From Escherichia coli (lineage in GTDB: Bacteria > Pseudomonadota > Gammaproteobacteria > Enterobacterales > Enterobacteriaceae): a DNA stretch of 64,000 bases. Below are positions 28,396 to 39,032 of the stretch, piece after piece (position 1 is the stretch's first letter; each line of letters opens with the position of its first letter). A program made the position numbers and the translations under genes. The stretch lies in assembly GCF_009931435.1 (NCBI RefSeq), contig NZ_CP043414.1; one strand, written 5' to 3'. A model generated the notes under the pieces. That model was given only the letters and a program-made list of their open reading frames with translations, was not told the origin of the DNA and ran no database searches.

Positions 28396-29218
28396 GAGTT
28401 CCCCGCGCCAGCGGGGATAAACCGGCGGTAAAATTGTTGCTACCGTCTGGCCCTTGCGAGTTCCCCGCGCCAGCGGGGATAAACCGACGGTGCAGGATCT
28501 GTAATTCTTGCTCGCGATGAGTTCCCCGCGCCAGCGGGGATAAACCGAGTTATCAGGATTATTCCCGCTCCGCCGCCAGGAGTTCCCCGCGCCAGCGGGG
28601 ATAAACCGTCGTTTTTGTGGTGGGAGTGTGCGGATTGGTAGAGTTCCCCGCGCCAGCGGGGATAAACCGGCTGACATTGTCAGCTATAACCTTACAATGT
28701 GGAGTTCCCCGCGCCAGCGGGGATAAACCGACGTCCCGCTATTTCCTGGACAGTGTGTAGCGGAGTTCCCCGCGCCAGCGGGGATAAACCGGCGGCGCTA
28801 ACGTGATAATCACGATCAATTATGAGTTCCCCGCGCCAGCGGGGATAAACCGCGGGCGTTAACCTTTTTATAGGCATCTTCCTTGAGTTCCCCGCGCCAG
28901 CGGGGATAAACCGGCTTGCAGCAGCTGCGCCAACATCTGAATACGGAGTTCCCCGCGCCAGCGGGGATAAACCGCTTTTTCCCGTGACAAGATCCAGTTA
29001 ACTGTTGAGTTCCCCGCGCCAGCGGGGATAAACCGCATCACTGGACGCCCATTTGAATAACTCACAGGAGTTCCCCGCGCCAGCGGGGATAAACCGATTC
29101 AGCAAATAGCGAATTTCATAAATATGATGTGTTCCCCGCGCCAGCGGGGATAAACCGTACGTTAAACGCCATCTGTCATGGGTCGTCATGTGTTCCCCGC
29201 GCCAGCGGGGATAAACCA
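28396..29218 (+). CRISPR. type I-E CRISPR array: 14 repeats, 13 spacers (32-33 bp)
   Basis: 29-bp repeat GAGTTCCCCGCGCCAGCGGGGATAAACCG at 28396, 28458, 28519, 28580, 28641, 28702, 28763, 28824, 28885, 28946, 29007, 29068; last two repeats (29129, 29190) are GTGTT variants and the final one ends ...AAACCA. Confidence 0.97.
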
Positions 29219-29855: not shown

Positions 29856-31334
29856 TTACGCATTCGACCAGCTCTGGATCGAATCTGCATTCCCCAACTC
29901 ACCATGCATCACTTCATACGATTTTTTCAGGATCACATCAGTGTGTTTGGTTAGGTCTTTGAAAATGCCTTTATTCATCGCGTCGTAGCGTTTGGCATTG
30001 CTCTCAATCGGCATAAAGATATCTTTCACGCGAACCATTTTGTCGACAGCCGTTGCGTAATCCGGGTATAGCCCCAGACCTATCGCTGTATTAATCGCGG
30101 CCCCCAGACTTGCGCAACCGTTAATGGCGTTACGGCGTGCCGGAAGGTTGAACACGTCGGCAAAAATCTGCATAAACAGATCGCTGTTCGAACCACCGCC
30201 AGTAATGATCACATGTTTCGCAAAGTGATTCATTTCATGACACATATTGTCGTAATTGTTCTTCAGCGTCAGCGCCACGCTTTCCAGTATCGAACGATAA
30301 ATCCATGCGTAATCCATGCTGGAATCAAAGCCGATCATAATTCCGCGTTTGTACGGTTCCCACGGATTGGTCAGCCAGTCCAGCACCGTCATCAGACCAT
30401 TACAGCCAGGCGGCACACAACAAGCTTTTTTGTTGAGCAAATCTTCCGGTGAAAGATCCTGCGCCCTGGCATCCTGAATTAACGATTCGCCTAGCATGTC
30501 GCGCAGCCAACTCACCGTCCACATACCTTTTCGAATACCATAACCTTCATACAGCAAGGTTTCCGGAATAGAAGACATGATCGGCCAGTACGCAACCGGA
30601 TCTTTCGGCAGTGCTTTGCCGTTCATCATCAACGCGATGTAGGTACCAAGAGAAATTACCGCCGTTTCATCATCCAGTAACCCTGCTCCCAGTGCTTCTA
30701 CCGGTTTATCACTGGTGGTACAAACAACGGGCAGTCCAACCGGGAAATGTGTCGCCAGCGCGGCTTGTGGTGTGATATGCCCAAGTACAGTGCCCGGCAT
30801 TTGCACATCAAAAAGCATCTGTCGGGGAATATTAAACTTCTCCATTACCGCGGTATCTTCGCTCCATGCCCAGGTCTTATAATCCACCGGCCACTGACCA
30901 AAATAGTTGGCGATATTGTCTTTAAACTCGCCGGTTAAACGGTGTGTCAGATAACCTGAAAAAGAGGTGACATATGCCACATCAGGATTGATGTGCTCGT
31001 AGGGACGTGTTACGCGTGCATCCTGCCAGCTAATCAACGGCGCAGCTGGCGTGCCATCGGCTTTCAATAACGCACGGCAGCAACGGATAGATCCCAGACC
31101 AATGCCGACAATATCTTCTTTATTCCCGGCAAACTGGCTCATCAAATCGTGACCAGCAAAACATAATGATGCCCATAAATCATCGTCAGGATGTTCTGCG
31201 GTATCGGCATCTGGAGTGTGCATCGGTTGTAATAAGCCTTTGCCTTCGCAAACCACGTTACCTTCCAGATCGTACATCACCACTTTTGTGCTCTGACTTC
31301 CGCCATCAATCCCTATGATGTATTTTTTCGACAT
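29856..31334 (-). CDS. ygcE: FGGY-family sugar (pentulose/hexulose-type) kinase
   Basis: 492-aa ORF MSKKYIIGIDGGSQSTKVVMYDLEGNVV... (FGGY N-terminal signature). Confidence 0.88.
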   Translation of the reverse strand: MSKKYIIGIDGGSQSTKVVMYDLEGNVVCEGKGLLQPMHTPDADTAEHPDDDLWASLCFAGHDLMSQFAGNKEDIVGIGLGSIRCCRALLKADGTPAAPLISWQDARVTRPYEHINPDVAYVTSFSGYLTHRLTGEFKDNIANYFGQWPVDYKTWAWSEDTAVMEKFNIPRQMLFDVQMPGTVLGHITPQAALATHFPVGLPVVCTTSDKPVEALGAGLLDDETAVISLGTYIALMMNGKALPKDPVAYWPIMSSIPETLLYEGYGIRKGMWTVSWLRDMLGESLIQDARAQDLSPEDLLNKKACCVPPGCNGLMTVLDWLTNPWEPYKRGIMIGFDSSMDYAWIYRSILESVALTLKNNYDNMCHEMNHFAKHVIITGGGSNSDLFMQIFADVFNLPARRNAINGCASLGAAINTAIGLGLYPDYATAVDKMVRVKDIFMPIESNAKRYDAMNKGIFKDLTKHTDVILKKSYEVMHGELGNADSIQSWSNA

Positions 31335-31360
31335 GATTTTTCTCCTGTAATTTTCCTGGC

Positions 31361-32638
31361 TTACTTGCTGCTAGCCATTGCGGGGGCGCTATCAGCAGTA
31401 CGAATTTTTTGGAACAGCAAAAAGGTAAAGACGATCACCATGGCAAGCGCCGCCATGCCCATCAGCCACATATTGCGGTAGGCTTCTGCTGCGGGCAGGG
31501 TGTCTTGCCAGTGGCCGATAATTGGGTAAACGAAGACATCCGGCAGAAATCCAATCACCGAACAAATACCTACCGTGGTGCCCATAATGTAAGACGGTGT
31601 TCTCGCTTCGCCAGGGCAGGCCCAGTACAGCCCGCGTGAGGCGTAACAGGTGAATCCCAGAAGTAAAATCAGACCAATCCCCATCGCGACCGATTGCGGG
31701 TTAGAGTTCGTGATGAGCAGGGCAGTTAACGCCAGCAGGCCGAGTACGGAAAGGATTTGGATCACGCGGGTAGGGGATTTCACTTTGCTGTAGGTGGTGA
31801 TAATGCCACCAAGTGGGCCGCACAGTGCGCGGAAGATTTTGTTGATCACAATCCCCATGTAGCTCGCCGCCACCAGCGACATGCCGTACATTTCGGTCAG
31901 ATAGTTGGTGGAGTAACTCAGAATGGCGTAGATGGTGAAGACGCCAAAAATCACCATGCTGCAGTACCATGTGGTGCTGATACGCAAAACGGCAAGGATG
32001 TCGCTAAGCTGGAATGACTGTTTTTCTTCGGTGTTGGTATTGCACAGGTTGTTGTTATCGCTAACAAAAAACCAGCACAGAATCCCCAACAAGATGTAAA
32101 CCACACTATAGATGATAATGACCGTTTTCAGGCTGGCGCTGTCATCCGGTGCAAAGCGAGAAAAGACCCACATGGTAAACACCGCCAGCGACATTACACC
32201 GACGCCGCGCAGCCCTTCCATCCAGCCCATAATTTTCCCTTGCTCGCTATGATCGCCAAGCAACGATGCGGCTTTAATCGACACCGACCACAGCATTAAA
32301 ATCGTCGTTATCGCAAAGGCGACCTGAATACAGAGCATTACCCACAGCGGTGGATACGTTGCCATTAACAGACCCAGCAATCCGGTAATGATCATCGCGG
32401 AAGTAATCATTTTGCGATGCGAAAATTTATCGGCAATAACGCCGCTGGGGGCATAAAGAATAATAGCCGCAATACCAAAGGTACTCATTATTAAACCTAT
32501 CTCGGTATTGCTGAATCCCATAAATTTCGCCATGGGAATTTGATAAATATAACGTAAATAAGCCAGATCAAAACTAACGCCGCCACTAAAACTAATTATC
32601 GCTAGGGTTATCCAACGGCGATATGAGTTGTGTTGCAT
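31361..32638 (-). CDS. yqcE: MFS transporter
   Basis: 425-aa ORF MQHNSYRRWITLAIISFSGGVSFDLAYLRYIYQ..., polytopic. Confidence 0.85.
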   Translation of the reverse strand: MQHNSYRRWITLAIISFSGGVSFDLAYLRYIYQIPMAKFMGFSNTEIGLIMSTFGIAAIILYAPSGVIADKFSHRKMITSAMIITGLLGLLMATYPPLWVMLCIQVAFAITTILMLWSVSIKAASLLGDHSEQGKIMGWMEGLRGVGVMSLAVFTMWVFSRFAPDDSASLKTVIIIYSVVYILLGILCWFFVSDNNNLCNTNTEEKQSFQLSDILAVLRISTTWYCSMVIFGVFTIYAILSYSTNYLTEMYGMSLVAASYMGIVINKIFRALCGPLGGIITTYSKVKSPTRVIQILSVLGLLALTALLITNSNPQSVAMGIGLILLLGFTCYASRGLYWACPGEARTPSYIMGTTVGICSVIGFLPDVFVYPIIGHWQDTLPAAEAYRNMWLMGMAALAMVIVFTFLLFQKIRTADSAPAMASSK

Positions 32639-32662
32639 ATCGTATTCCCATTTGTAATAGAC

Positions 32663-32710
32663 AAAAAAAAGAGAAAAGTAAGCCGCCCTTTCAGGTGGAT
32701 TACTTTTCTC
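32663..32710 (-). terminator. intrinsic-terminator-like hairpin in the yqcE 5' leader (minus-strand sense)
   Basis: On the minus strand: 11-bp perfect stem GAGAAAAGTAA / TTACTTTTCTC (plus 32671-32710) followed by U8 (plus 32663-32670), ending about 25 nt upstream of the yqcE ATG. Confidence 0.6.
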
Positions 32711-32885
32711 AGGTCTCTAGTAATTGCAATAAGAAATAACATGGAAAGCAGGGGGGTTGTGTGAGAGTAGTCACGCTTCTGCTTTTTAAAATTATTTGAT
32801 AATACGAATATCACACTGTGATTACGATCACATTAGCGCTTATGCCCTTATGCTAAAAATTATCTCCAGTTACCAGAGATAATGA

Positions 32886-32932
32886 GAAAGGTAACTTCCC
32901 TCTCGCGGGGGAAGTTACCTTTCTTTTTTTTT
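32886..32932 (+). terminator. canonical intrinsic terminator hairpin in the ygcW 5' leader
   Basis: 15-bp perfect stem GAAAGGTAACTTCCC / GGGAAGTTACCTTTC with 8-nt loop, followed by T9 (32924-32932); ends 24 nt before the ygcW ATG. Confidence 0.7.
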
Positions 32933-32956
32933 GCCTTACGGAAATTGGAGCTAACT

Positions 32957-33742
32957 ATGTCAATCGAATCTCTCAATGCGTTCTCAATGGATCTTTTCTC
33001 CCTGAAAGGTAAAACCGCAATTGTTACCGGCGGGAATAGCGGTTTAGGCCAGGCATTTGCCATGGCGCTGGCAAAAGCAGGCGCAAATATCTTTATTCCA
33101 AGTTTCGTTAAAGATAATGGCGAAACAAAGGAAATGATTGAAAAACAGGGTGTTGAGGTGGACTTCATGCAGGTGGATATCACCGCAGAAGGCGCGCCGC
33201 AGAAGATAATTACCGCCTGTTGTGAACGTTTCGGCACCGTCGATATTCTGGTTAACAATGCCGGTATATGTAAGCTGAATAAGGTGCTGGATTTCGGTCG
33301 TGCCGACTGGGACCCGATGATTGACGTGAACCTGACCGCCGCATTCGAGTTAAGCTATGAAGCGGCAAAAATTATGATCCCGCAGAAAAGCGGTAAAATC
33401 ATTAATATCTGTTCATTATTCTCTTACTTAGGTGGTCAATGGTCACCTGCTTATTCTGCCACTAAACACGCCCTTGCCGGATTTACCAAAGCCTATTGCG
33501 ATGAATTAGGTCAATATAATATTCAGGTAAATGGTATTGCCCCAGGATATTACGCTACCGATATCACCCTGGCGACACGCAGTAATCCAGAAACCAATCA
33601 GCGCGTTCTTGATCATATTCCAGCAAACCGTTGGGGCGATACTCAGGATTTAATGGGCGCAGCCATATTTCTCGCAAGTCCGGCATCGAATTATGTCAAC
33701 GGGCATTTATTAGTGGTTGATGGCGGTTATTTAGTGCGCTAA
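32957..33742 (+). CDS. ygcW: short-chain dehydrogenase/reductase (KduD/FabG-like)
   Basis: ORF track starts 32882; the ATG at 32957 with GGAG RBS gives MSIESLNAFSMDLFSLKGKTAIVTGGNSGLGQA... (TGxxxGxG NAD-binding motif), 261 aa. Confidence 0.88.
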   Translation: MSIESLNAFSMDLFSLKGKTAIVTGGNSGLGQAFAMALAKAGANIFIPSFVKDNGETKEMIEKQGVEVDFMQVDITAEGAPQKIITACCERFGTVDILVNNAGICKLNKVLDFGRADWDPMIDVNLTAAFELSYEAAKIMIPQKSGKIINICSLFSYLGGQWSPAYSATKHALAGFTKAYCDELGQYNIQVNGIAPGYYATDITLATRSNPETNQRVLDHIPANRWGDTQDLMGAAIFLASPASNYVNGHLLVVDGGYLVR

Positions 33743-33811
33743 TCCATAACGGTGGTTTCTGATTTCTTTTATTAATGACTATTCCATTTTTATTATCAGG
33801 AAGGAATTACT

Positions 33812-35266
33812 ATGTCTTTATCTCGCGCAGCGATTGTCGACCAGCTAAAGGAAATTGTTGGTGCAGATCGCGTAATTACCGATGAAACGGTATTGAAGAA
33901 AAACAGTATTGATCGTTTTCGTAAATTTCCGGATATTCATGGTATTTATACTTTGCCTATTCCGGCAGCGGTCGTAAAACTCGGTTCCACTGAGCAAGTG
34001 TCCCGTGTGCTGAATTTTATGAATGCACACAAAATTAACGGCGTACCACGTACCGGTGCTTCCGCTACCGAAGGCGGGCTGGAAACCGTTGTGGAAAACT
34101 CGGTGGTGCTTGATGGCTCTGCAATGAATCAAATCATTAATATTGATATAGAGAATATGCAGGCGACGGCGCAATGTGGCGTTCCGCTGGAAGTGCTGGA
34201 AAACGCGTTGCGTGAAAAAGGTTACACCACGGGGCACTCTCCGCAGTCAAAACCGTTGGCACAGATGGGGGGACTGGTGGCGACCCGTAGTATCGGGCAG
34301 TTCTCCACACTCTACGGCGCAATCGAGGATATGGTCGTTGGCCTGGAAGCAGTACTGGCTGATGGCACCGTGACACGCATTAAAAACGTGCCACGACGCG
34401 CGGCGGGTCCGGACATTCGTCACATCATCATCGGCAACGAAGGCGCATTGTGCTATATCACTGAAGTTACTGTGAAAATCTTTAAATTCACCCCGGAAAA
34501 CAACCTCTTCTACGGCTATATCCTGGAAGACATGAAAACCGGCTTCAACATCCTGCGTGAAATCATGGTGGAAGGATATCGTCCGTCGATCGCTCGTTTG
34601 TATGACGCTGAAGATGGCACCCAACACTTCACCCATTTTGCCGACGGAAAATGCGTGCTGATCTTTATGGCTGAAGGTAACCCTCGCATTGCGAAGGCGA
34701 CGGGCGAAGGGATTGCTGAAATCGTGGCACGTTACCCGCAATGCCAGCGCGTGGACAGCAAGCTGATCGAAACCTGGTTTAACAACCTGAACTGGGGACC
34801 GGATAAAGTGGCTGCCGAACGTGTGCAGATCCTCAAAACCGGCAACATGGGCTTTACCACCGAAGTCTCCGGCTGCTGGAGCTGCATCCACGAAATCTAC
34901 GAAAGTGTTATTAACCGTATTCGTACCGAGTTCCCACATGCCGACGACATCACTATGCTGGGCGGTCACTCTTCCCACAGCTATCAGAACGGCACCAACA
35001 TGTATTTTGTCTACGACTACAACGTTGTTGACTGTAAGCCGGAAGAGGAAATCGACAAATACCACAATCCGCTCAACAAAATCATCTGCGAAGAAACCAT
35101 TCGCCTCGGCGGTTCGATGGTACACCATCACGGTATCGGTAAACATCGTGTTCACTGGAGCAAACTGGAACACGGCAGCGCGTGGGCGTTGCTGGAAGGG
35201 CTGAAAAAGCAGTTCGATCCTAACGGCATTATGAATACGGGTACTATCTATCCGATTGAAAAATAA
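33812..35266 (+). CDS. ygcU: FAD-linked oxidase (alkyl-DHAP synthase / D-lactate dehydrogenase-like)
   Basis: 484-aa ORF MSLSRAAIVDQLKEIVGADRVITDETVLKKNSIDRF..., FAD-binding PCMH-type domain. Confidence 0.88.
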   Translation: MSLSRAAIVDQLKEIVGADRVITDETVLKKNSIDRFRKFPDIHGIYTLPIPAAVVKLGSTEQVSRVLNFMNAHKINGVPRTGASATEGGLETVVENSVVLDGSAMNQIINIDIENMQATAQCGVPLEVLENALREKGYTTGHSPQSKPLAQMGGLVATRSIGQFSTLYGAIEDMVVGLEAVLADGTVTRIKNVPRRAAGPDIRHIIIGNEGALCYITEVTVKIFKFTPENNLFYGYILEDMKTGFNILREIMVEGYRPSIARLYDAEDGTQHFTHFADGKCVLIFMAEGNPRIAKATGEGIAEIVARYPQCQRVDSKLIETWFNNLNWGPDKVAAERVQILKTGNMGFTTEVSGCWSCIHEIYESVINRIRTEFPHADDITMLGGHSSHSYQNGTNMYFVYDYNVVDCKPEEEIDKYHNPLNKIICEETIRLGGSMVHHHGIGKHRVHWSKLEHGSAWALLEGLKKQFDPNGIMNTGTIYPIEK

Positions 35267-35359
35267 TGTGTCAGGTAGCGTTTCGCGATGACGGGACGTT
35301 GCCTTTTCGGCTTCTCAACCGGGAAGCCGTTCTTATTACCGGACAATGAAGGGGTAAAG

Positions 35360-36697
35360 ATGAACACTTCACCGGTGCGAATGGATGATTTACCACTTAA
35401 CCGTTTTCACTGTCGAATTGCTGCGCTGACTTTCGGCGCACACCTGACCGACGGTTATGTTCTCGGCGTCATTGGTTACGCCATAATTCAGCTTACTCCA
35501 GCCATGCAACTGACGCCGTTTATGGCGGGAATGATCGGCGGCTCGGCGCTACTTGGCCTGTTTATCGGCAGCCTGGTTTTGGGCTGGATCTCCGACCATA
35601 TCGGGCGGCAAAAAATCTTCACCTTCAGCTTTATGCTGATTACACTCGCCTCGTTCCTGCAATTTTTTGCCACCACGCCAGAGCATCTTATTGGACTGCG
35701 CATTTTGATCGGCATTGGGCTGGGAGGCGATTACTCAGTAGGCCACACCTTGCTGGCTGAATTTTCTCCGCGCCGCCATCGCGGTATTTTGCTGGGCGCA
35801 TTCAGCGTGGTGTGGACCGTAGGCTATGTGCTGGCAAGTATTGCCGGACATCACTTTATTAGCGAAAGCCCCGAAGCCTGGCGATGGTTACTTGCATCGG
35901 CGGCATTTCCTGCCCTGTTGATTACGTTGTTACGTTGGGGAACGCCAGAATCGCCACGCTGGCTACTGCGCCAGGGGCGTTTTGCAGAAGCTCACGCTAT
36001 CGTGCATCGCTATTTTGGTCCCCATGTTTTACTGGGCGATGAAGTGGCAACGGCGACCCATAAACACATCAAAACCTTGTTCTCTTCGCGCTACTGGCGG
36101 CGCACGGCGTTTAACAGTGTCTTCTTTGTCTGCCTCGTAATCCCATGGTTTGTAATTTACACCTGGCTGCCAACTATCGCCCAGACTATTGGACTGGAAG
36201 ATGCGCTGACTGCCAGCCTGCTGCTTAACGCGTTATTAATTGTGGGTGCGCTGCTGGGATTATTTCTGACGCACCTGCTGGCACATCGCAAATTTTTACT
36301 TGGCAGTTTTTTGTTGCTGGCGGCAACGCTGGTAGTGATGGCCTGTTTGCCTTCTGGCTGTTCATTAACGCTGCTGCTTTTTGTTCTCTTCAGTACCACC
36401 ATTTCGGCAGTCAGTAATCTGGTGGGCATTTTGCCTGCGGAAAGTTTTCCTACTGACATTCGCTCGCTGGGCGTCGGTTTTGCCACCGCCATGAGTCGGT
36501 TGGGCGCGGCGGTAAGTACTGGCCTGCTGCCGTGGGTGCTGGCACAGTGGGGAATGCAAGTCACCTTATTGCTCCTGGCGGCAGTGTTGTTGGTTGGTTT
36601 TGTTGTGACCTGGCTATGGGCGCCAGAAACCAAAGCACTCCCGCTGGTGGCGGCGGGAAATGTAGGAGGTGTGAATGAACATTCTGTTAGCGTTTAA
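35360..36697 (+). CDS. ygcS: MFS transporter (sugar/acid porter type)
   Basis: ORF track starts 35288; the ATG at 35360 with GAAGGGG RBS gives MNTSPVRMDDLPLNRFHCRIAALTFGAH..., polytopic. Confidence 0.85.
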   Translation: MNTSPVRMDDLPLNRFHCRIAALTFGAHLTDGYVLGVIGYAIIQLTPAMQLTPFMAGMIGGSALLGLFIGSLVLGWISDHIGRQKIFTFSFMLITLASFLQFFATTPEHLIGLRILIGIGLGGDYSVGHTLLAEFSPRRHRGILLGAFSVVWTVGYVLASIAGHHFISESPEAWRWLLASAAFPALLITLLRWGTPESPRWLLRQGRFAEAHAIVHRYFGPHVLLGDEVATATHKHIKTLFSSRYWRRTAFNSVFFVCLVIPWFVIYTWLPTIAQTIGLEDALTASLLLNALLIVGALLGLFLTHLLAHRKFLLGSFLLLAATLVVMACLPSGCSLTLLLFVLFSTTISAVSNLVGILPAESFPTDIRSLGVGFATAMSRLGAAVSTGLLPWVLAQWGMQVTLLLLAAVLLVGFVVTWLWAPETKALPLVAAGNVGGVNEHSVSV

Positions 36698-37454
36698 AGC
36701 CGAACCGGATGCCGGAATGCTGGCGGAAAAAGAGTGGCAGGCGGCGGCTCAGGGTAATAGCGGACCGGATGTTTCGCTGCTGCGAAGTTTACTCGGTGCT
36801 GATGAACAGGCCGCTGCCGCGCTTCTGTTAGCGCAGAGAAAAAACGGTACGCCGATGTCTTTAACCGCGTTGAGCATGGGGGATGAACGGGCGTTGCACT
36901 GGCTGCGCTATCTCATGGCTCTTGGGTTTGAGGAAGCTGTATTGCTGGAGACGGCGGCAGATCTGCGCTTTGCGCCGGAATTTGTCGCTCGCCATATTGC
37001 CGAATGGCAGCGCCAGAATCCGCTGGATCTGATCATTACTGGCTGCCAGAGCAGCGAAGGGCAGAACGGGCAAACGCCATTTTTGCTGGCGGAAATGCTG
37101 ACCTGGCCCTGTTTTACCCAGGTGGAGCGTTTTACTCTCGACGCACCGTTTATCTCGCTCGAACAGCGTACTGAACATGGATTACGCTGTTGTCGGGTTC
37201 GCTTGCCTGCGGTGATTGCCGTGCGCCAGTGTGGCGAGGTGGCCTTGCCAGTACCGGGAATGCGCCAGCGAATGGCTGCGGGGAAAGCTGAAATTATCCG
37301 CAAAACTGTTACTGCTGAATCGTCAGCGATGCAGTGCCGGCAACTGGAAAGGCCAGAGCAACGACGCGGTGCAACGCTTCTTGATGGGCAAACGGTAGCA
37401 GAAAAAGCGCAAAAGCTATGGCAGGACTATTTACGCCAAAGGATGCAGCCATGA
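36675..37454 (+). CDS. ygcR: electron-transfer flavoprotein beta-subunit-like (FixA-type)
   Basis: 259-aa ORF MNILLAFKAEPDAGMLAEKEWQAAAQG...; GGAGGTG RBS; overlaps the ygcS 3' end. Confidence 0.85.
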   Translation: MNILLAFKAEPDAGMLAEKEWQAAAQGNSGPDVSLLRSLLGADEQAAAALLLAQRKNGTPMSLTALSMGDERALHWLRYLMALGFEEAVLLETAADLRFAPEFVARHIAEWQRQNPLDLIITGCQSSEGQNGQTPFLLAEMLTWPCFTQVERFTLDAPFISLEQRTEHGLRCCRVRLPAVIAVRQCGEVALPVPGMRQRMAAGKAEIIRKTVTAESSAMQCRQLERPEQRRGATLLDGQTVAEKAQKLWQDYLRQRMQP

Positions 37455-38311
37455 ATATCGCCATTGTGACAATAAATCAGGAACATGCCGCAATAGCGGG
37501 CTGGCTGGCGGAGCAGGATTTCAGCGGCAGCACATTAACGCACTGGCAAATCGAGCCGCAGCCGATGGTCGCGGAACAGGTGCTGGATGCGCTGGTAGAA
37601 CAGTGGCAGCGAACGCCTGCGGACGTTGTTCTCTTTCCGCCGGGAACGTTTGGCGATGAACTGGCTACCCGCCTGTCCTGGCGTTTACATGGTGCCAGTA
37701 TATGCCAGGTGACTTCATTAAATATTCCAACCGGAAGCGTACGCAAATCCCAGTGGGGAAATGCGCTAACGGCGACGCTGCAAACAGAAAAACGCCCGCT
37801 ATGCCTTTCCCTTGCCCGCCAGGCGGGAGCAGTGAAAAATGCCACGTTGCCCTCTGGTATGCAGCAACTGAACATTGTCCCCGGCGCGCTTCCCGACTGG
37901 CTGGTTAGCACAGAGGATCTGAAAAATGTTACCCACGACCCATTAGCTGAGGCCAGACGGGTGCTGGTGGTGGGGCAGGGCGGAGAGGCAGATAACCAGG
38001 AAATCGCTATGCTGGCAGAAAAGCTGGGAGCCGAAGCGGGCTACAGTCGGGCGCGAGTAATGAACGGTGGCGTTGATGCCGAAAAAGTGATTGGTATTTC
38101 CGGACATCTGCTGGCACCTGAGGTGTGTATTGTTGTTGGCGCTTCCGGCGCAGCAGCGTTAATGGCGGGCGTCCGCAATAGCAAGTTTGTGGTGGCGATT
38201 AATCATGACGCCAGCGCGGCGGTATTTTCACAGGCAGATGTTGGCGTGGTAGATGACTGGAAAGCGGTGCTGGAGGCACTGGTGACAACCATTCACGCAG
38301 ATTGCCAATAA
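37451..38311 (+). CDS. ygcQ: electron-transfer flavoprotein alpha-subunit-like (FixB-type)
   Basis: ATG at 37451 gives MNIAIVTINQEHAAIAGWLAEQ...; ATGA overlap with the ygcR stop. Confidence 0.85.
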   Translation: MNIAIVTINQEHAAIAGWLAEQDFSGSTLTHWQIEPQPMVAEQVLDALVEQWQRTPADVVLFPPGTFGDELATRLSWRLHGASICQVTSLNIPTGSVRKSQWGNALTATLQTEKRPLCLSLARQAGAVKNATLPSGMQQLNIVPGALPDWLVSTEDLKNVTHDPLAEARRVLVVGQGGEADNQEIAMLAEKLGAEAGYSRARVMNGGVDAEKVIGISGHLLAPEVCIVVGASGAAALMAGVRNSKFVVAINHDASAAVFSQADVGVVDDWKAVLEALVTTIHADCQ

Positions 38312-38315
38312 CGTG

Positions 38316-38428
38316 CTGCCGGATGATCCTGTCTACGGTTCTGGGCTGGGGACTGTAGGCCTGATAAGACGCGTCAAGCGTCGTATCAGGCGCTGAATGC
38401 CGGATTTGGCATGTGGCCTACAAATCAG
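38316..38428. repeat. REP/BIME palindromic units in the convergent ygcQ-ygcP intergenic region
   Basis: GTAGGCCTGATAAGACGCGTCAAGCGTCGTATCAGGCGC plus the flanking TGCCGGAT...GGCCTACA. Confidence 0.7.
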
Positions 38429-38456: not shown

Positions 38457-39032
38457 TCAAAGCAATTTTTTCGCTAACGTCCAGACCCCGGTATTCGTGG
38501 TGGAAAGCGCCACGACACCGGCGTTAATCGCATTACGCGCATCTTCTTCATCGCACACCAGCCCGCCAGCAATCAGCGGCTGGTGGATTTTCTCCGTTAC
38601 CCAGCCCAGCACTTTAGGCATACAGCCTGGCAGAATTTCAATACAATCAGGATTCGATTGCGCAACCTGCTTATCAATGTTGTGAAAAGAAATCGAGTCG
38701 ACAATAAACAAGCGATGAATACAGAAAAAGCCTTCCGCTCTCGCCGCTTTTAGCATTGACGCTTTGGTACTGATAATGCCGTCCGCCTCGGTCACCAGTT
38801 TCAGAAACTGAATTACTACTTCTTTATTTGATGCGCCTTCCAGCAAATCGACATGAATAAAGGCATATTTCCCGGCACTTTTAATCTTTTTGACGATATG
38901 ACTGATGGTGCAGATATTGCCGTATAACACGGAAATAAACTGGCATTCAGAATCGATTGCCAACTGCAGGCTGGCATTATCTTTAACGGCAGCAATCACC
39001 GGATTCTGGCGGAGCAGGTGTAAGAGGGGCAT
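38457..39032 (-). CDS. ygcP: GlpP-family (glycerol-3-phosphate-responsive-type) transcription antiterminator
   Basis: 191-aa ORF MPLLHLLRQNPVIAAVKDNASLQLAIDSECQFISVLYGNI... Confidence 0.85.
   Translation of the reverse strand: MPLLHLLRQNPVIAAVKDNASLQLAIDSECQFISVLYGNICTISHIVKKIKSAGKYAFIHVDLLEGASNKEVVIQFLKLVTEADGIISTKASMLKAARAEGFFCIHRLFIVDSISFHNIDKQVAQSNPDCIEILPGCMPKVLGWVTEKIHQPLIAGGLVCDEEDARNAINAGVVALSTTNTGVWTLAKKLL

Follow-up and report, generated by a model that had tools for sequence, protein, structure and literature searches.

The antiterminators BglG, SacY, and LicT, which are CAT-PRD proteins under PTS control, act on RAT-terminator leaders at bgl in Escherichia coli and at sac and lic in Bacillus subtilis. 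In the trp operon of B. subtilis it is TRAP that binds spaced NAG/GAG repeats, there promoting termination. Spaced NAG/GAG repeats are also described as being bound by HutP, in the hut operon of B. subtilis (PMC2425495). The glp genes of the same species are controlled through antitermination by GlpP at the leaders of glpD, glpFK, and glpTQ, as cited in PMC9604022 and PMC10573289, which refer to the original work of Holmberg & Rutberg (1991, 1992), Glatz et al. (1996, 1998), and Darbon et al. (2002); according to the papers cited there, glpD is a demonstrated GlpP target at which antitermination requires the protein.

The locus described here lies in a 64 kb stretch of E. coli DNA (the window), which is approximately 97% identical to most E. 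coli. It contains the divergent operons yqcE-ygcE (29856-32638, minus strand), encoding an MFS transporter and an FGGY kinase, and ygcW-ygcU-ygcS-ygcR-ygcQ (32957-38311, plus strand), encoding an SDR, an FAD oxidase, an MFS transporter, and the beta and alpha subunits of an ETF. No ygc protein reaches an equivalog cut-off in the NCBIfam scan, and no paper was found on the ygc pathway. The gene ygcP (38457-39032, minus strand) is proposed from its sequence to encode the antiterminator of both operons. As had been said of it in a preliminary description of the region, YgcP is a protein of the GlpP family: the model of the Pfam family G3P_antiterm (PF04309) is covered in all of its 173 positions by residues 12-184, with E = 2.5e-62, and its sequence relatives with a solved structure include the GlpP structures 3KTS and 1VKF. 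YgcP is 31% identical to the Priestia GlpP that is encoded beside glpFKD and 62% identical to a YgcP-type protein of Clostridium, and this type is placed by sequence comparison in an orthologous group of its own.

Terminators, transcripts, and promoters of the two leaders

The yqcE–ygcW spacer, as read from the sequence, is 318 nt long (32639-32956) and is bordered by the ATG of yqcE at 32638 on the minus strand and that of ygcW at 32957 on the plus strand. Eight of its positions differ from strain K-12, none of them within the hairpins described below and only one, 32727, adjoining a leader. The terminator scan found 8 terminator-like sites in 1 kb, against 1.2 +/- 1.3 in shuffled sequences. 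The two intrinsic terminators that had been described in the spacer are confirmed by sequence and by folding. The ygcW leader terminator hairpin (32884-32925, plus strand) has a folding energy of -30.6 kcal/mol (z = -7.8), with none of 200 shuffles as stable, and the 15 bp perfect stem described previously is present as the core of a 19-pair stem; the following T9 tract (32924-32932, plus strand) ends 24 nt before the ygcW ATG. The yqcE hairpin (32671-32710, minus strand) consists, as described, of an 11 bp basal stem, continued by an imperfect upper stem, and has an energy of -20.5 kcal/mol (z = -5.5), again with 0 of 200 shuffles as stable. Its U8 tract (32663-32670, minus strand) ends 24 nt before the yqcE ATG, where the previous figure was about 25.

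Published data from K-12 show that both terminators are used. The RNA-seq of Romero et al. 2014 (Table S5, PMC4681348) contains two short RNAs, ecr2774 and ecr2775, which were catalogued as candidate sRNAs and tentatively labelled as REP-like stem-loops. When their coordinates are mapped to the window, ecr2774 is the ygcW leader transcript (32864-32937, plus strand) and ecr2775 the yqcE leader transcript (32662-32726, minus strand), with the 3' end of the latter at 32662/32663, by the U8 tract. Adams et al. 2021 (PMC7815308) likewise report 5'-UTR 3' ends at K-12 positions 2900556(+) and 2900311(-). The former corresponds to 32919 in the window, -38 from the ygcW start codon and with 40,640 Term-seq reads in LB, and the latter to 32674, -36 from the yqcE start codon; both are 4-5 nt ahead of the long U runs, not inside them. 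The intrinsic-terminator scores of these ends are 15.8 for ygcW and 11.4 for yqcE, and the Rho scores of 0.50 and 0.61, respectively, indicate that neither 3' end is Rho-dependent. The northern probe for ecr2775, as printed in Table S9 of the 2014 study, has no match to the spacer even with 8 mismatches allowed, and the blot is therefore not counted here as support.

The transcripts in these two data sets, which were listed there without a mechanism or regulator, are thus identical to the terminated leaders of ygcW and yqcE. The short terminated leader transcripts that the preliminary description had suggested looking for are indeed present, as ecr2774 and ecr2775, and its placement of the terminators within 5' leaders holds, in that the published 5' ends are upstream of both hairpins and the 3' ends are at both; neither promoter lies downstream of its hairpin. 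The alternative given there, that one hairpin terminates a small divergent sRNA, is right in that short RNAs exist, but these are terminated leaders on the sense strand rather than a divergent sRNA. Both hairpin-plus-T-run signals are genuine, conserved transcription stop signals.

Upstream of each leader there is a CRP site and an extended -10 sequence. CRP site 1, TGTGAGAGTAGTCACG (32760-32775, centre 32767.5), serves the yqcE promoter, and CRP site 2, TGTGATTACGATCACA (32817-32832, centre 32824.5), which is a perfect consensus, serves the ygcW promoter. Site 2 binds CRP in vitro with a Kd of 1.7 nM (PMC12871828) and is occupied in vivo in ETEC ChIP-seq (PMC4287617). The extended -10 of yqcE (TG, T, TATTTC; 32733-32741, minus strand) is 7 nt upstream of the mapped 5' end, and CATGYTATTT is kept here across loci; that of ygcW (TG-C-TAAAAA; 32851-32859, plus strand) is recognized from sequence and conservation, with TGCTAAAAAT kept within the Escherichia-to-Pluralibacter group. 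The CRP-site centres at 32824.5 and 32767.5 are at -40 to -42 from the mapped 5' ends, 32864/5 and 32725/6, respectively. Since each site is thus centred about 41.5 nt from its start, both promoters can be assigned to the class II CRP-dependent type. On the yqcE side, a CRP-like site is located 41.5-43.5 nt from the first base of the leader (AATTAC/AGTTAC) in 42 of 42 loci, and on the ygcW side the spacing is 42.5-44.5 nt in 41 of 42, the exception being L040, where the script chose a spurious nearer site. Relative to CRP sites and start codons, the element keeps one position from Escherichia to Vibrio.

The RNA element and its relatives

Compared with each other, the two leaders are recognizable as copies of one RNA element of roughly 70 nt, in which a 5' arm AGUUACY is followed by a boxed loop, a 3' arm RGUAACU, the terminator, and the U-tract. 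The loop holds two invariant boxes, AGAGA and NGAGA, separated by 2-3 nt, and the RGUAACU arm doubles as part of the terminator 5' arm. In the ygcW leader (plus strand) the antiterminator 5' arm AGUUACC is at 32868-32874, the tandem boxes AGAGA-UAA-UGAGA, which are the proposed YgcP binding site, at 32875-32887, and the 3' arm GGUAACU at 32890-32896. In the yqcE leader (minus strand) the corresponding features are AUUACU at 32719-32724, AGAGA-CC-UGAGA, again the putative YgcP site, at 32707-32718, and AGUAAU at 32699-32704; in both leaders the 3' arm is within the terminator 5' arm. The ygcW and yqcE copies are inverted repeats of each other. Attenuation by a leader peptide was considered and rejected, as conservation of the ATG at 32882, which is in frame, does not extend to the yqcE-type leaders.

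The alternative structure expected of GlpP-type leaders, one that overlaps the terminator 5' arm, is found at both terminators as an antiterminator helix with compensatory changes, the two features for which the preliminary description had recommended folding and alignment across relatives. The nascent ygcW leader (32864-32904) folds to a 7 bp antiterminator helix of -6.7 kcal/mol, and the truncated yqcE leader likewise to an antiterminator helix of -1.4 kcal/mol. No fold of the nascent leader has a lower energy than the antiterminator, yet this helix is weak compared with terminators of -31 and -20.5 kcal/mol, which would mean that a stabilizing factor is needed. In an alignment of 75 distinct leaders, no variation is seen in the GAG of box 1 or in GAGAAA-G. 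The terminator helix is paired in 88.8% of cells, with compensatory change at 9 pairs. The antiterminator helix is paired in 88–92% of cells, against at most 53% in slid controls, and shows two-sided change at 3 pairs, which, the sequences being related, amounts to about three independent double changes; in one locus, L027, the change is consistent in all three interacting segments. The GAGAAA sequence doubles as the A-rich base of the terminator stem, and its conservation could in part be due to termination itself. A search of 32000-33600 against Rfam at permissive thresholds gave nothing relevant, the best match being SurA sRNA with 23 bits against a gathering score of 100, and the element is absent from Rfam.

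The distribution of the element was followed in about 45 loci of Enterobacterales, Vibrio, Clostridium, and Thalassobacillus. Both leaders are present in all 42 Enterobacterales loci with an intact ygcW–yqcE spacer, while in a 43rd, L032, the two hairpins are fused into one. A covariance model scores the ygcW leader (32862-32932) at 83.5 bits and the yqcE leader (32663-32731) at 78.9 bits and finds exactly two strong matches per Enterobacterales locus, with no further copy in the 64 kb window or in any 20 kb locus. It also matches sequences that were not used in training, each beside a YgcP-type gene: two divergent leaders in Vibrio, two copies with a separate promoter each in Clostridium, and the element in Thalassobacillus. 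One of the Clostridium copies is operon-internal, with its own promoter. Weak matches in Lachnoclostridium and Faecalibacterium are located between GlpP-like and glycerol-3-phosphate-oxidase-like genes, and their stems, which differ in sequence, are still complementary. The element is present at every sufficiently complete locus gathered through a YgcP relative and is always directly upstream of coding regions. The leaders are thus genomically linked to the regulator gene, a co-occurrence that runs in the direction from protein to RNA only, the loci having been found through the protein.

Within the ygc cluster there is no terminator and no element in the queD–ygcN spacer, and the convergent ygcQ/ygcP spacer has only REP-type palindromes and no third leader. 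In E. coli genomes the hairpin is found at a median of two places per genome, with no copies on plasmids; as the hairpin is a palindrome and would match itself on either strand, the two places are taken to be a single locus. In the opposite direction, from RNA to protein, scanning metagenomes for AGTTACTAGAG-N3-6-GAGRAAAGTAACTTCC gave only two short contigs, one Enterobacterales-like with both leaders and ygcW, the other, of 1.3 kb, ending within the element.

A comparable arrangement is seen in the leaders of a demonstrated GlpP target and of glp genes next to GlpP. The B. subtilis glpD leader, GGUC[CUGAGAUGAGGAGA]GACC, carries UGAGA-UGAG-GAGA in a GGUC/GACC hairpin and folds, as the ygc leaders do, into a weak antiterminator against a strong terminator. 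GlpP-adjacent glpF/glpD leaders of Priestia, Lysinibacillus, Paenibacillus, and Gracilibacillus have GGAGA-N3-GGAGA, with the first box degenerate in one Paenibacillus glpD leader; the Listeria GlpP locus was left out, as no glp genes adjoin it. A motif common to the two sets of leaders is seen in a comparison made by eye and by regular-expression search. Both systems have a known or proposed regulator of family PF04309, an intrinsic terminator close to the promoter within the 5' leader, and a weak hairpin whose 3' arm begins the terminator 5' arm and whose loop has two boxes of GAGA type at a distance of about 8 nt. In both, leader control, which is proposed in the ygc case, is joined to catabolite control, and the FGGY kinase, FAD-dependent oxidase, and transporter of the ygc operons parallel GlpK, GlpD, and GlpF/T.

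The ygc leaders differ from those of glp in their boxes, AGAGA/NGAGA rather than GGAGA/GGAGA, and in having the hairpin arm AGUUACY at the extreme 5' end. Their target genes are not glp genes, the two divergent leaders have a class II CRP site each where CcpA acts in the glp case, and YgcP, at about 31% identity to glpFKD-adjacent GlpP, is in a separate orthologous group. The hosts of ygc-type loci are mostly Gram-negative, and the ygc case is known from comparison. With the BglG, SacY, and LicT systems the proposed ygc control would share its logic, that of a catabolic operon with a leader terminator, a protein-stabilized hairpin over the terminator 5' arm, and substrate-dependent induction. 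The regulator family is not that of YgcP, however, and the RAT is unrelated to the ygc element in sequence and structure. The ygc leader sequence is unlike the RAT hairpin, and no CAT-PRD antiterminator gene was found in the annotated cluster or by the NCBIfam scan, so that membership of the RAT type can be rejected. HutP and TRAP are similar in that short, spaced, purine-rich repeats are by or over a leader terminator, but their folds are unrelated and the number and spacing of the repeats are unlike those of the ygc boxes.

A model for control by CRP and YgcP

It is quite probable, as judged from these comparisons, that yqcE-ygcE and ygcWUSRQ are controlled by CRP-activated promoters together with YgcP-dependent antitermination. 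A YgcP antitermination regulon was the model of the preliminary description, and as a prediction from sequence it is well supported by comparison, through the terminators, the motif shared with glp leaders, the covarying helices, and the linkage to ygcP-type genes. No paper was found that ties YgcP to these leaders, and the searchable literature yielded no data from ygcP mutants. Each transcript opens with the same 65–70 nt leader, which, unaided, folds into a strong intrinsic terminator, such that RNA polymerase halts 24–40 nt ahead of the start codon and frees ecr2774 or ecr2775. In the proposed mechanism, YgcP would be the RNA-binding factor and the boxes its site. As for its inducer, the parallel with GlpK, glycerol-3-phosphate, and GlpP makes a phosphorylated intermediate, produced by the FGGY kinase YgcE, the probable candidate. 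Loaded YgcP would then bind the two purine boxes, AGAGA and NGAGA with 2–3 nt between them, in the loop of the weak 6–7 bp hairpin AGUUACY/RGUAACU at the 5' end of the transcript. The terminator 5' arm begins with 13–14 nt that are box 2 and the 3' arm of this hairpin, and the terminator therefore could not form once the hairpin was stabilized. Polymerase would read through into yqcE-ygcE and ygcWUSRQ, and expression would need two signals, the inducer of the pathway itself and cAMP-CRP, the sign that no better carbon source is present.

That the terminators are instead constitutive dampers or insulators, or answer to some other factor, with CRP alone setting expression and the short RNAs being by-products or trans-acting sRNAs, is improbable. 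The abundance of the terminated ygcW leader in LB, with its 40,640 Term-seq reads, the cataloguing of both short RNAs as candidate sRNAs, and the well documented binding of CRP would all suit such an arrangement, but a constitutive terminator would have no use for a covarying upstream arm and invariant unpaired boxes, and the constant position of the element directly upstream of coding regions, including the operon-internal copy in Clostridium, suits a switch acting in cis. Still less credence can be given to protein-independent riboswitches, in which the loop or hairpin would bind a metabolite directly and YgcP would be otherwise employed. The anatomy is riboswitch-like, with helices that exclude one another and a conserved core left unpaired by either fold, but the candidate aptamer is merely a 6–7 bp stem with a 14–18 nt loop, smaller and simpler than any riboswitch class known to us. 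It matches no Rfam family, its box layout is that of B. subtilis glpD, where antitermination requires GlpP, and a GlpP-family gene is beside the element at every locus examined.

The hairpins might be taken for REP-like or mobile palindromes devoid of regulatory function, given the tentative label in the 2014 catalogue and the fact that the two copies are mutual inverted repeats, yet this can scarcely be believed: the two copies are alone in the window and in each locus, the E. coli median of two places is read as one locus and plasmids have none, placement with respect to CRP sites and start codons does not change from Escherichia to Vibrio, and the REP sequences proper that occur elsewhere in the cluster are unlike these hairpins. 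Control by YgcP is the preferred reading of both leaders.

A wider reading, towards which we lean with some reserve, is that proteins of the GlpP family read two RGAGA boxes, approximately 8 nt apart and carried in the loop of a short, terminator-fused hairpin, and that YgcP-type proteins form a separate branch carrying this to the Gram-negative bacteria, where it gates, with CRP, a kinase/FAD-oxidase/ETF pathway for a polyol or sugar. The system would have been transferred as a unit, as is suggested by the presence of regulator, RNA site, and pathway genes together in distant phyla, and the inverted copies would have been kept alike by gene conversion. Recognition of RNA by B. subtilis GlpP is, to our knowledge, still poorly defined, and the boxes are proposed as a recognition motif for antiterminators of this family. 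Should this be confirmed, no earlier GlpP-type antitermination system would be known to us from a Gram-negative bacterium. The ygc operons, among many in K-12 that lack an assigned function or regulation, gain a concrete regulatory model, and two abundant and unexplained 5'-UTR transcripts in published K-12 data are accounted for. A reporter built on the leader could help to find the substrate of the pathway.

Terminators and transcript ends in the yqcE-ygcW spacer

An 801-bp query around the site matches 5,068 of 5,426 complete E. coli genomes at 95–99% identity, and the window DNA is Escherichia. The order of the ygc genes is that of K-12, with ygcE and yqcE on the minus strand, ygcW, ygcU, ygcS, ygcR and ygcQ on the plus strand, and ygcP, ygcO, ygcN and queD again on the minus strand. 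The spacer between yqcE and ygcW (32639–32956) is 318 nt, as in K-12, from which it differs at 8 positions, none inside the hairpins. The ygcW-side hairpin (32884–32925, plus strand) has 19 pairs and a folding energy of -30.6 kcal/mol (z -7.8), and the yqcE-side hairpin (32710–32671, minus strand) folds at -20.5 kcal/mol (z -5.5); none of 200 shuffled sequences was as stable in either case. The T9 tract of the ygcW leader (32924–32932, plus strand) and the U8 tract of the yqcE leader (32670–32663, minus strand) each end 24 nt 5' of the ATG. A consensus scan of 1 kb around the spacer found 8 terminator-like sites against 1.2 expected. Sequence and folding thus agree with the preliminary description of two intrinsic terminators here, the factual statements of which are all correct.

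That the hairpins lie inside 5' leaders is borne out by two published K-12 data sets. Among the short RNAs of Romero et al. 2014 (PMC4681348, Table S5), ecr2774 (73 nt) and ecr2775 (63 nt) are from this spacer and are listed as 'upstream, same strand' of ygcW and yqcE, respectively. Once calibrated on CsrB (their numbering is shifted by 1978 from that now used for K-12), they correspond to 32864–32937 (plus) and 32725–32662 (minus), each starting slightly 5' of its own hairpin and finishing at the end of the U-tract. Short terminated leaders, with 5' ends upstream of the hairpins, are therefore present in the published transcript mapping. The Term-seq data of Adams et al. 2021 (PMC7815308, Supplementary file 3; LB, OD 0.4) place 3' ends at 2900311(-) and 2900556(+), 38 and 36 nt upstream of the ygcW and yqcE start codons. 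Their Rho scores of 0.50 and 0.61 mean that they are not Rho-dependent, their intrinsic-terminator scores are 15.8 and 11.4 (threshold 3), the ygcW leader end is abundant (40,640 reads), and neither is assigned a regulatory element (PMC7815308).

These 3' ends, at 32919 (plus) and 32674 (minus), are 4–5 nt ahead of the long U runs, in the lower stem's U-rich 3' arm; either trimming as far as the GC-rich upper stem or a terminator made up of the upper stem alone could account for this. The northern probe ORL43, given for ecr2775(u+) in Table S9 (PMC4681348), has no match in the spacer of K-12 or the window with 8 substitutions allowed, so that there is an error either in that table or in the blot assignment, and because the printed probe has no match the blot is not counted as support.

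Other repeats are present nearby. Between queE and ygcE (28458–28915) is a CRISPR array of type I-E, with the E. coli repeat GAGTTCCCCGCGCCAGCGGGGATAAACCG and a 61-nt period; the best-matching E. coli genome also has a CRISPR annotated there. REP/BIME-like palindromes, GCCTGATAAGACGCG...CGTCGTATCAGGC and TGCCGGAT, are in the convergent ygcQ-ygcP spacer (38330–38420); their sequences are unrelated to those of the leader hairpins.

The leader element in the Enterobacterales

A genome scan with YgcP, the GlpP-family protein encoded in the cluster, gave 48 loci, 44 of which have both ygcW and yqcE, with an extractable spacer in 43. They include Escherichia, Citrobacter, Klebsiella, Yokenella, Mixta, Pluralibacter, Buttiauxella, Serratia, Rahnella, Ewingella, Budvicia, Limnobaculum and Enterobacillus. 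The two terminators are separate copies in 42 of these 43 spacers, and in the sense orientation the ygcW and yqcE leaders are variants of one sequence, (C)AGUUACY - AGAGA - N2-4 - NGAGAAA - RGUAACUUCCC - loop - GGGAAGUUACYUUUCUC - U7-9. Across 75 distinct leaders the GAG of box 1, the first of the two GAGA-type motifs, and GAGAAA-G are invariant. Initiation at the in-frame ATG at 32882 would make ygcW 25 codons longer, reaching across the terminator (32882–32956; the 286-aa form in the ORF list), but this ATG belongs to box 2 and lacks conservation in yqcE-type leaders, and is therefore probably not a start codon.

The comparative alignment shows compensatory changes in two mutually exclusive helices. 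The terminator helix is paired in 88.8% of cells, with two-sided changes at 9 of 19 pairs. In the alternative helix, the 5' AGUUACY pairs with RGUAACU, itself within the terminator 5' arm; pairing is 88% in the MAFFT alignment and 91.8% in the model-based alignment (89 matches), against at most 53% in slid controls. The double changes here are G-C to A-U (26 sequences), U-A to C-G (23 sequences) and, in locus L027, A-U to G-C, the last accompanied by a matching alteration of the terminator 3' arm. The alternative helix is the lowest-energy fold of each nascent leader before the terminator 3' arm is made. At -6.7 (ygcW) and -1.4 kcal/mol (yqcE) it is far weaker than the terminators (-31 and -20.5 kcal/mol), which would make termination the default and a stabilising factor necessary for read-through.

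In the 43rd spacer, that of Limnobaculum eriocheiris (130 nt), there is a single fused hairpin between A9 and T9 (L032, 13882–13955); recombination between the inverted terminators appears to have removed the two promoters and the two CRP sites. In two further loci, L036 (16257–16330 and 16578–16651) and L041 (16312–16385 and 16592–16665), the two terminators, read in the sense direction, do not differ even in the loop, while the loops differ between the species, which suggests that gene conversion has kept the inverted copies in concerted evolution. In Citrobacter youngae and Klebsiella spallanzanii (L011, L013) an insertion of about 128 nt, similar in appearance to an ERIC/IRU-type element, lies between the yqcE-leader terminator and the start codon, increasing their distance from about 24 to 150 nt.

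YgcP-type genes elsewhere and the GlpP leaders

A covariance model trained on the 75 leaders finds exactly two strong matches in each spacer-containing Enterobacterales locus, and two in the 64-kb window (83.5 and 78.9 bits), with no additional copies elsewhere in the window or loci. Outside the training set, there are divergent leaders 5' of SDR and FGGY kinase genes in Vibrio hannami (59 and 54 bits; YgcP 59% identical), and one in Thalassobacillus (58 bits; 59%), where it precedes the SDR-kinase-oxidase operon and is oriented away from the regulator gene. Clostridium sediminicola (62%) has one copy 5' of an SDR gene (49 bits) and one operon-internal 5' of an FAD oxidase gene (60 bits), each preceded by TTGACA-17-TATACT. 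The element sequence is near-identical in all three, for example AGUUACUAGAGCCGAGAGAAAAGUAACUUCC. Since these training-independent matches adjoin YgcP-type genes, regulator, RNA site and pathway genes are, on this evidence, found together in both Proteobacteria and Firmicutes. The second Clostridium copy (L052, 7268–7333) lies between the FGGY kinase and FAD oxidase genes with its own promoter, in a cluster with duplicated oxidase/ETF gene sets. In Lachnoclostridium and Faecalibacterium, weak matches lie between GlpP-like genes (products 46–49% identical to YgcP) and glycerol-3-phosphate-oxidase-like genes; the boxes are the same and the stems differ yet remain complementary (UUGC/GCAA and GUUUC/GAAAC).

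YgcP is a full-length G3P_antiterm protein, in line with the GlpP-family membership given in the preliminary description. Its identity is 31% with Priestia GlpP and 62% with the YgcP-type protein of Clostridium, which puts it in a distinct branch of the family. Placed behind foreign promoters, the 5' UTR of B. subtilis glpD by itself confers control by GlpP and glycerol (PMC9604022). That leader reads AGUUAAUAAGAAC-GGUC-CUGAGAUGAGGAGA-GACC-ACAG..., with the terminator next. Its 4-bp hairpin has GAGA-UGAG-GAGA in the loop and a 3' arm that is also the start of the terminator. The same plan is seen in leaders adjacent to glpP, glpF or glpD in four other Bacillales, with boxes GGAGA-AUA-GGAGA (Priestia glpF), GGAGA-AUC-GGAGA (Priestia glpD), UGAGU-AAC-UGAGA (Lysinibacillus glpD), AGGAA-A-AGGAA (Lysinibacillus glpF), GGAGA-ACC-GGAGA (Paenibacillus glpF) and GGAGA-AUA-GGAGU (Gracilibacillus glpF), compared with AGAGA-UAA-UGAGA for ygcW and AGAGA-CC-UGAGA for yqcE. 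The ygc system differs in its protein branch, regulon, mostly Gram-negative hosts, paired divergent leaders and CRP coupling.

The Bacillales glp leaders (L057 8565–8740 and 11128–11296; L058 6079–6288 and 8559–8723; L061 8571–8823 and 12577–12968; L062 8541–8771) also have a conserved 5' AGUUAAUA; all of them start with AAGUUAAUA (AAGUUCAUA in one) directly after the -10. A 5' AGUUA is common to these and the ygc leaders, which start AGUUAC.

Promoters, proposed mechanism and alternatives

A perfect CRP site, TGTGATTACGATCACA (32817–32832), published as a prediction in 2007, is bound in vitro with a Kd of 1.7 nM (PMC12871828) and in vivo in ETEC ChIP-seq (PMC4287617); a second CRP-like site, TGTGAGAGTAGTCACG (32760–32775), is seen in the sequence. 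Each leader has a CRP-like site of its own, 42.5–44.5 nt from the first conserved base of the leader on the ygcW side (41 of 42 loci) and 41.5–43.5 nt on the yqcE side (42 of 42), even where the spacer is 587 nt. Both transcripts start 1–3 nt ahead of the conserved AGUUAC/AAUUAC, with a TG-extended -10 at 7 nt upstream and the CRP centre at about -41 relative to the mapped 5' ends; both are class II CRP promoters. In genomic SELEX the spacer (32639–32956) was bound by RpoD holoenzyme and H-NS (PMC3946193), and H-NS silencing could be an extra layer of control.

CRP-cAMP would turn on both promoters, and both leaders would terminate unless relieved. Inducer-loaded YgcP would bind both boxes and steady the 5' hairpin, hiding the first 13–14 nt of the terminator 5' arm and so allowing polymerase to continue past it. 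The inducer is likely to be the product of YgcE (an FGGY kinase) and the substrate of YgcU (an FAD oxidase with ETF partners), on the model of GlpK, glycerol-3-phosphate, GlpP and GlpD; all ygc proteins fall short of the NCBIfam equivalog cut-offs. The YgcP-controlled antitermination regulon of the preliminary description is thus supported as to terminators, transcript ends, CRP binding, helices, glpD-like motif and linkage to ygcP, while the binding by YgcP, its location at the boxes and the nature of the ligand are what we infer.

The terminators might instead be constitutive dampers or insulators, or be otherwise controlled, with the short RNAs as by-products or trans-acting sRNAs, but this is unlikely, as it leaves the covarying upstream arm and the invariant unpaired box unexplained. 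Protein-free riboswitches are a good deal less probable still, given that the candidate aptamer is very small, that Rfam has no family matching the leader element, and that glpD, with the same layout, requires GlpP. The tentative REP-like label that the hairpins carry in the 2014 catalogue (PMC4681348) is hardly credible for an element that has just two copies and whose position with respect to CRP sites and start codons is fixed across orders.

Published tables already contain the hairpins and short RNAs, without a mechanism, and the CRP site is known; no paper was found in the literature that ties YgcP to these leaders. GlpP antitermination is a known kind of system, of which the ygc cluster would be a new case, and as a side product a recognition motif is proposed for the entire GlpP family.
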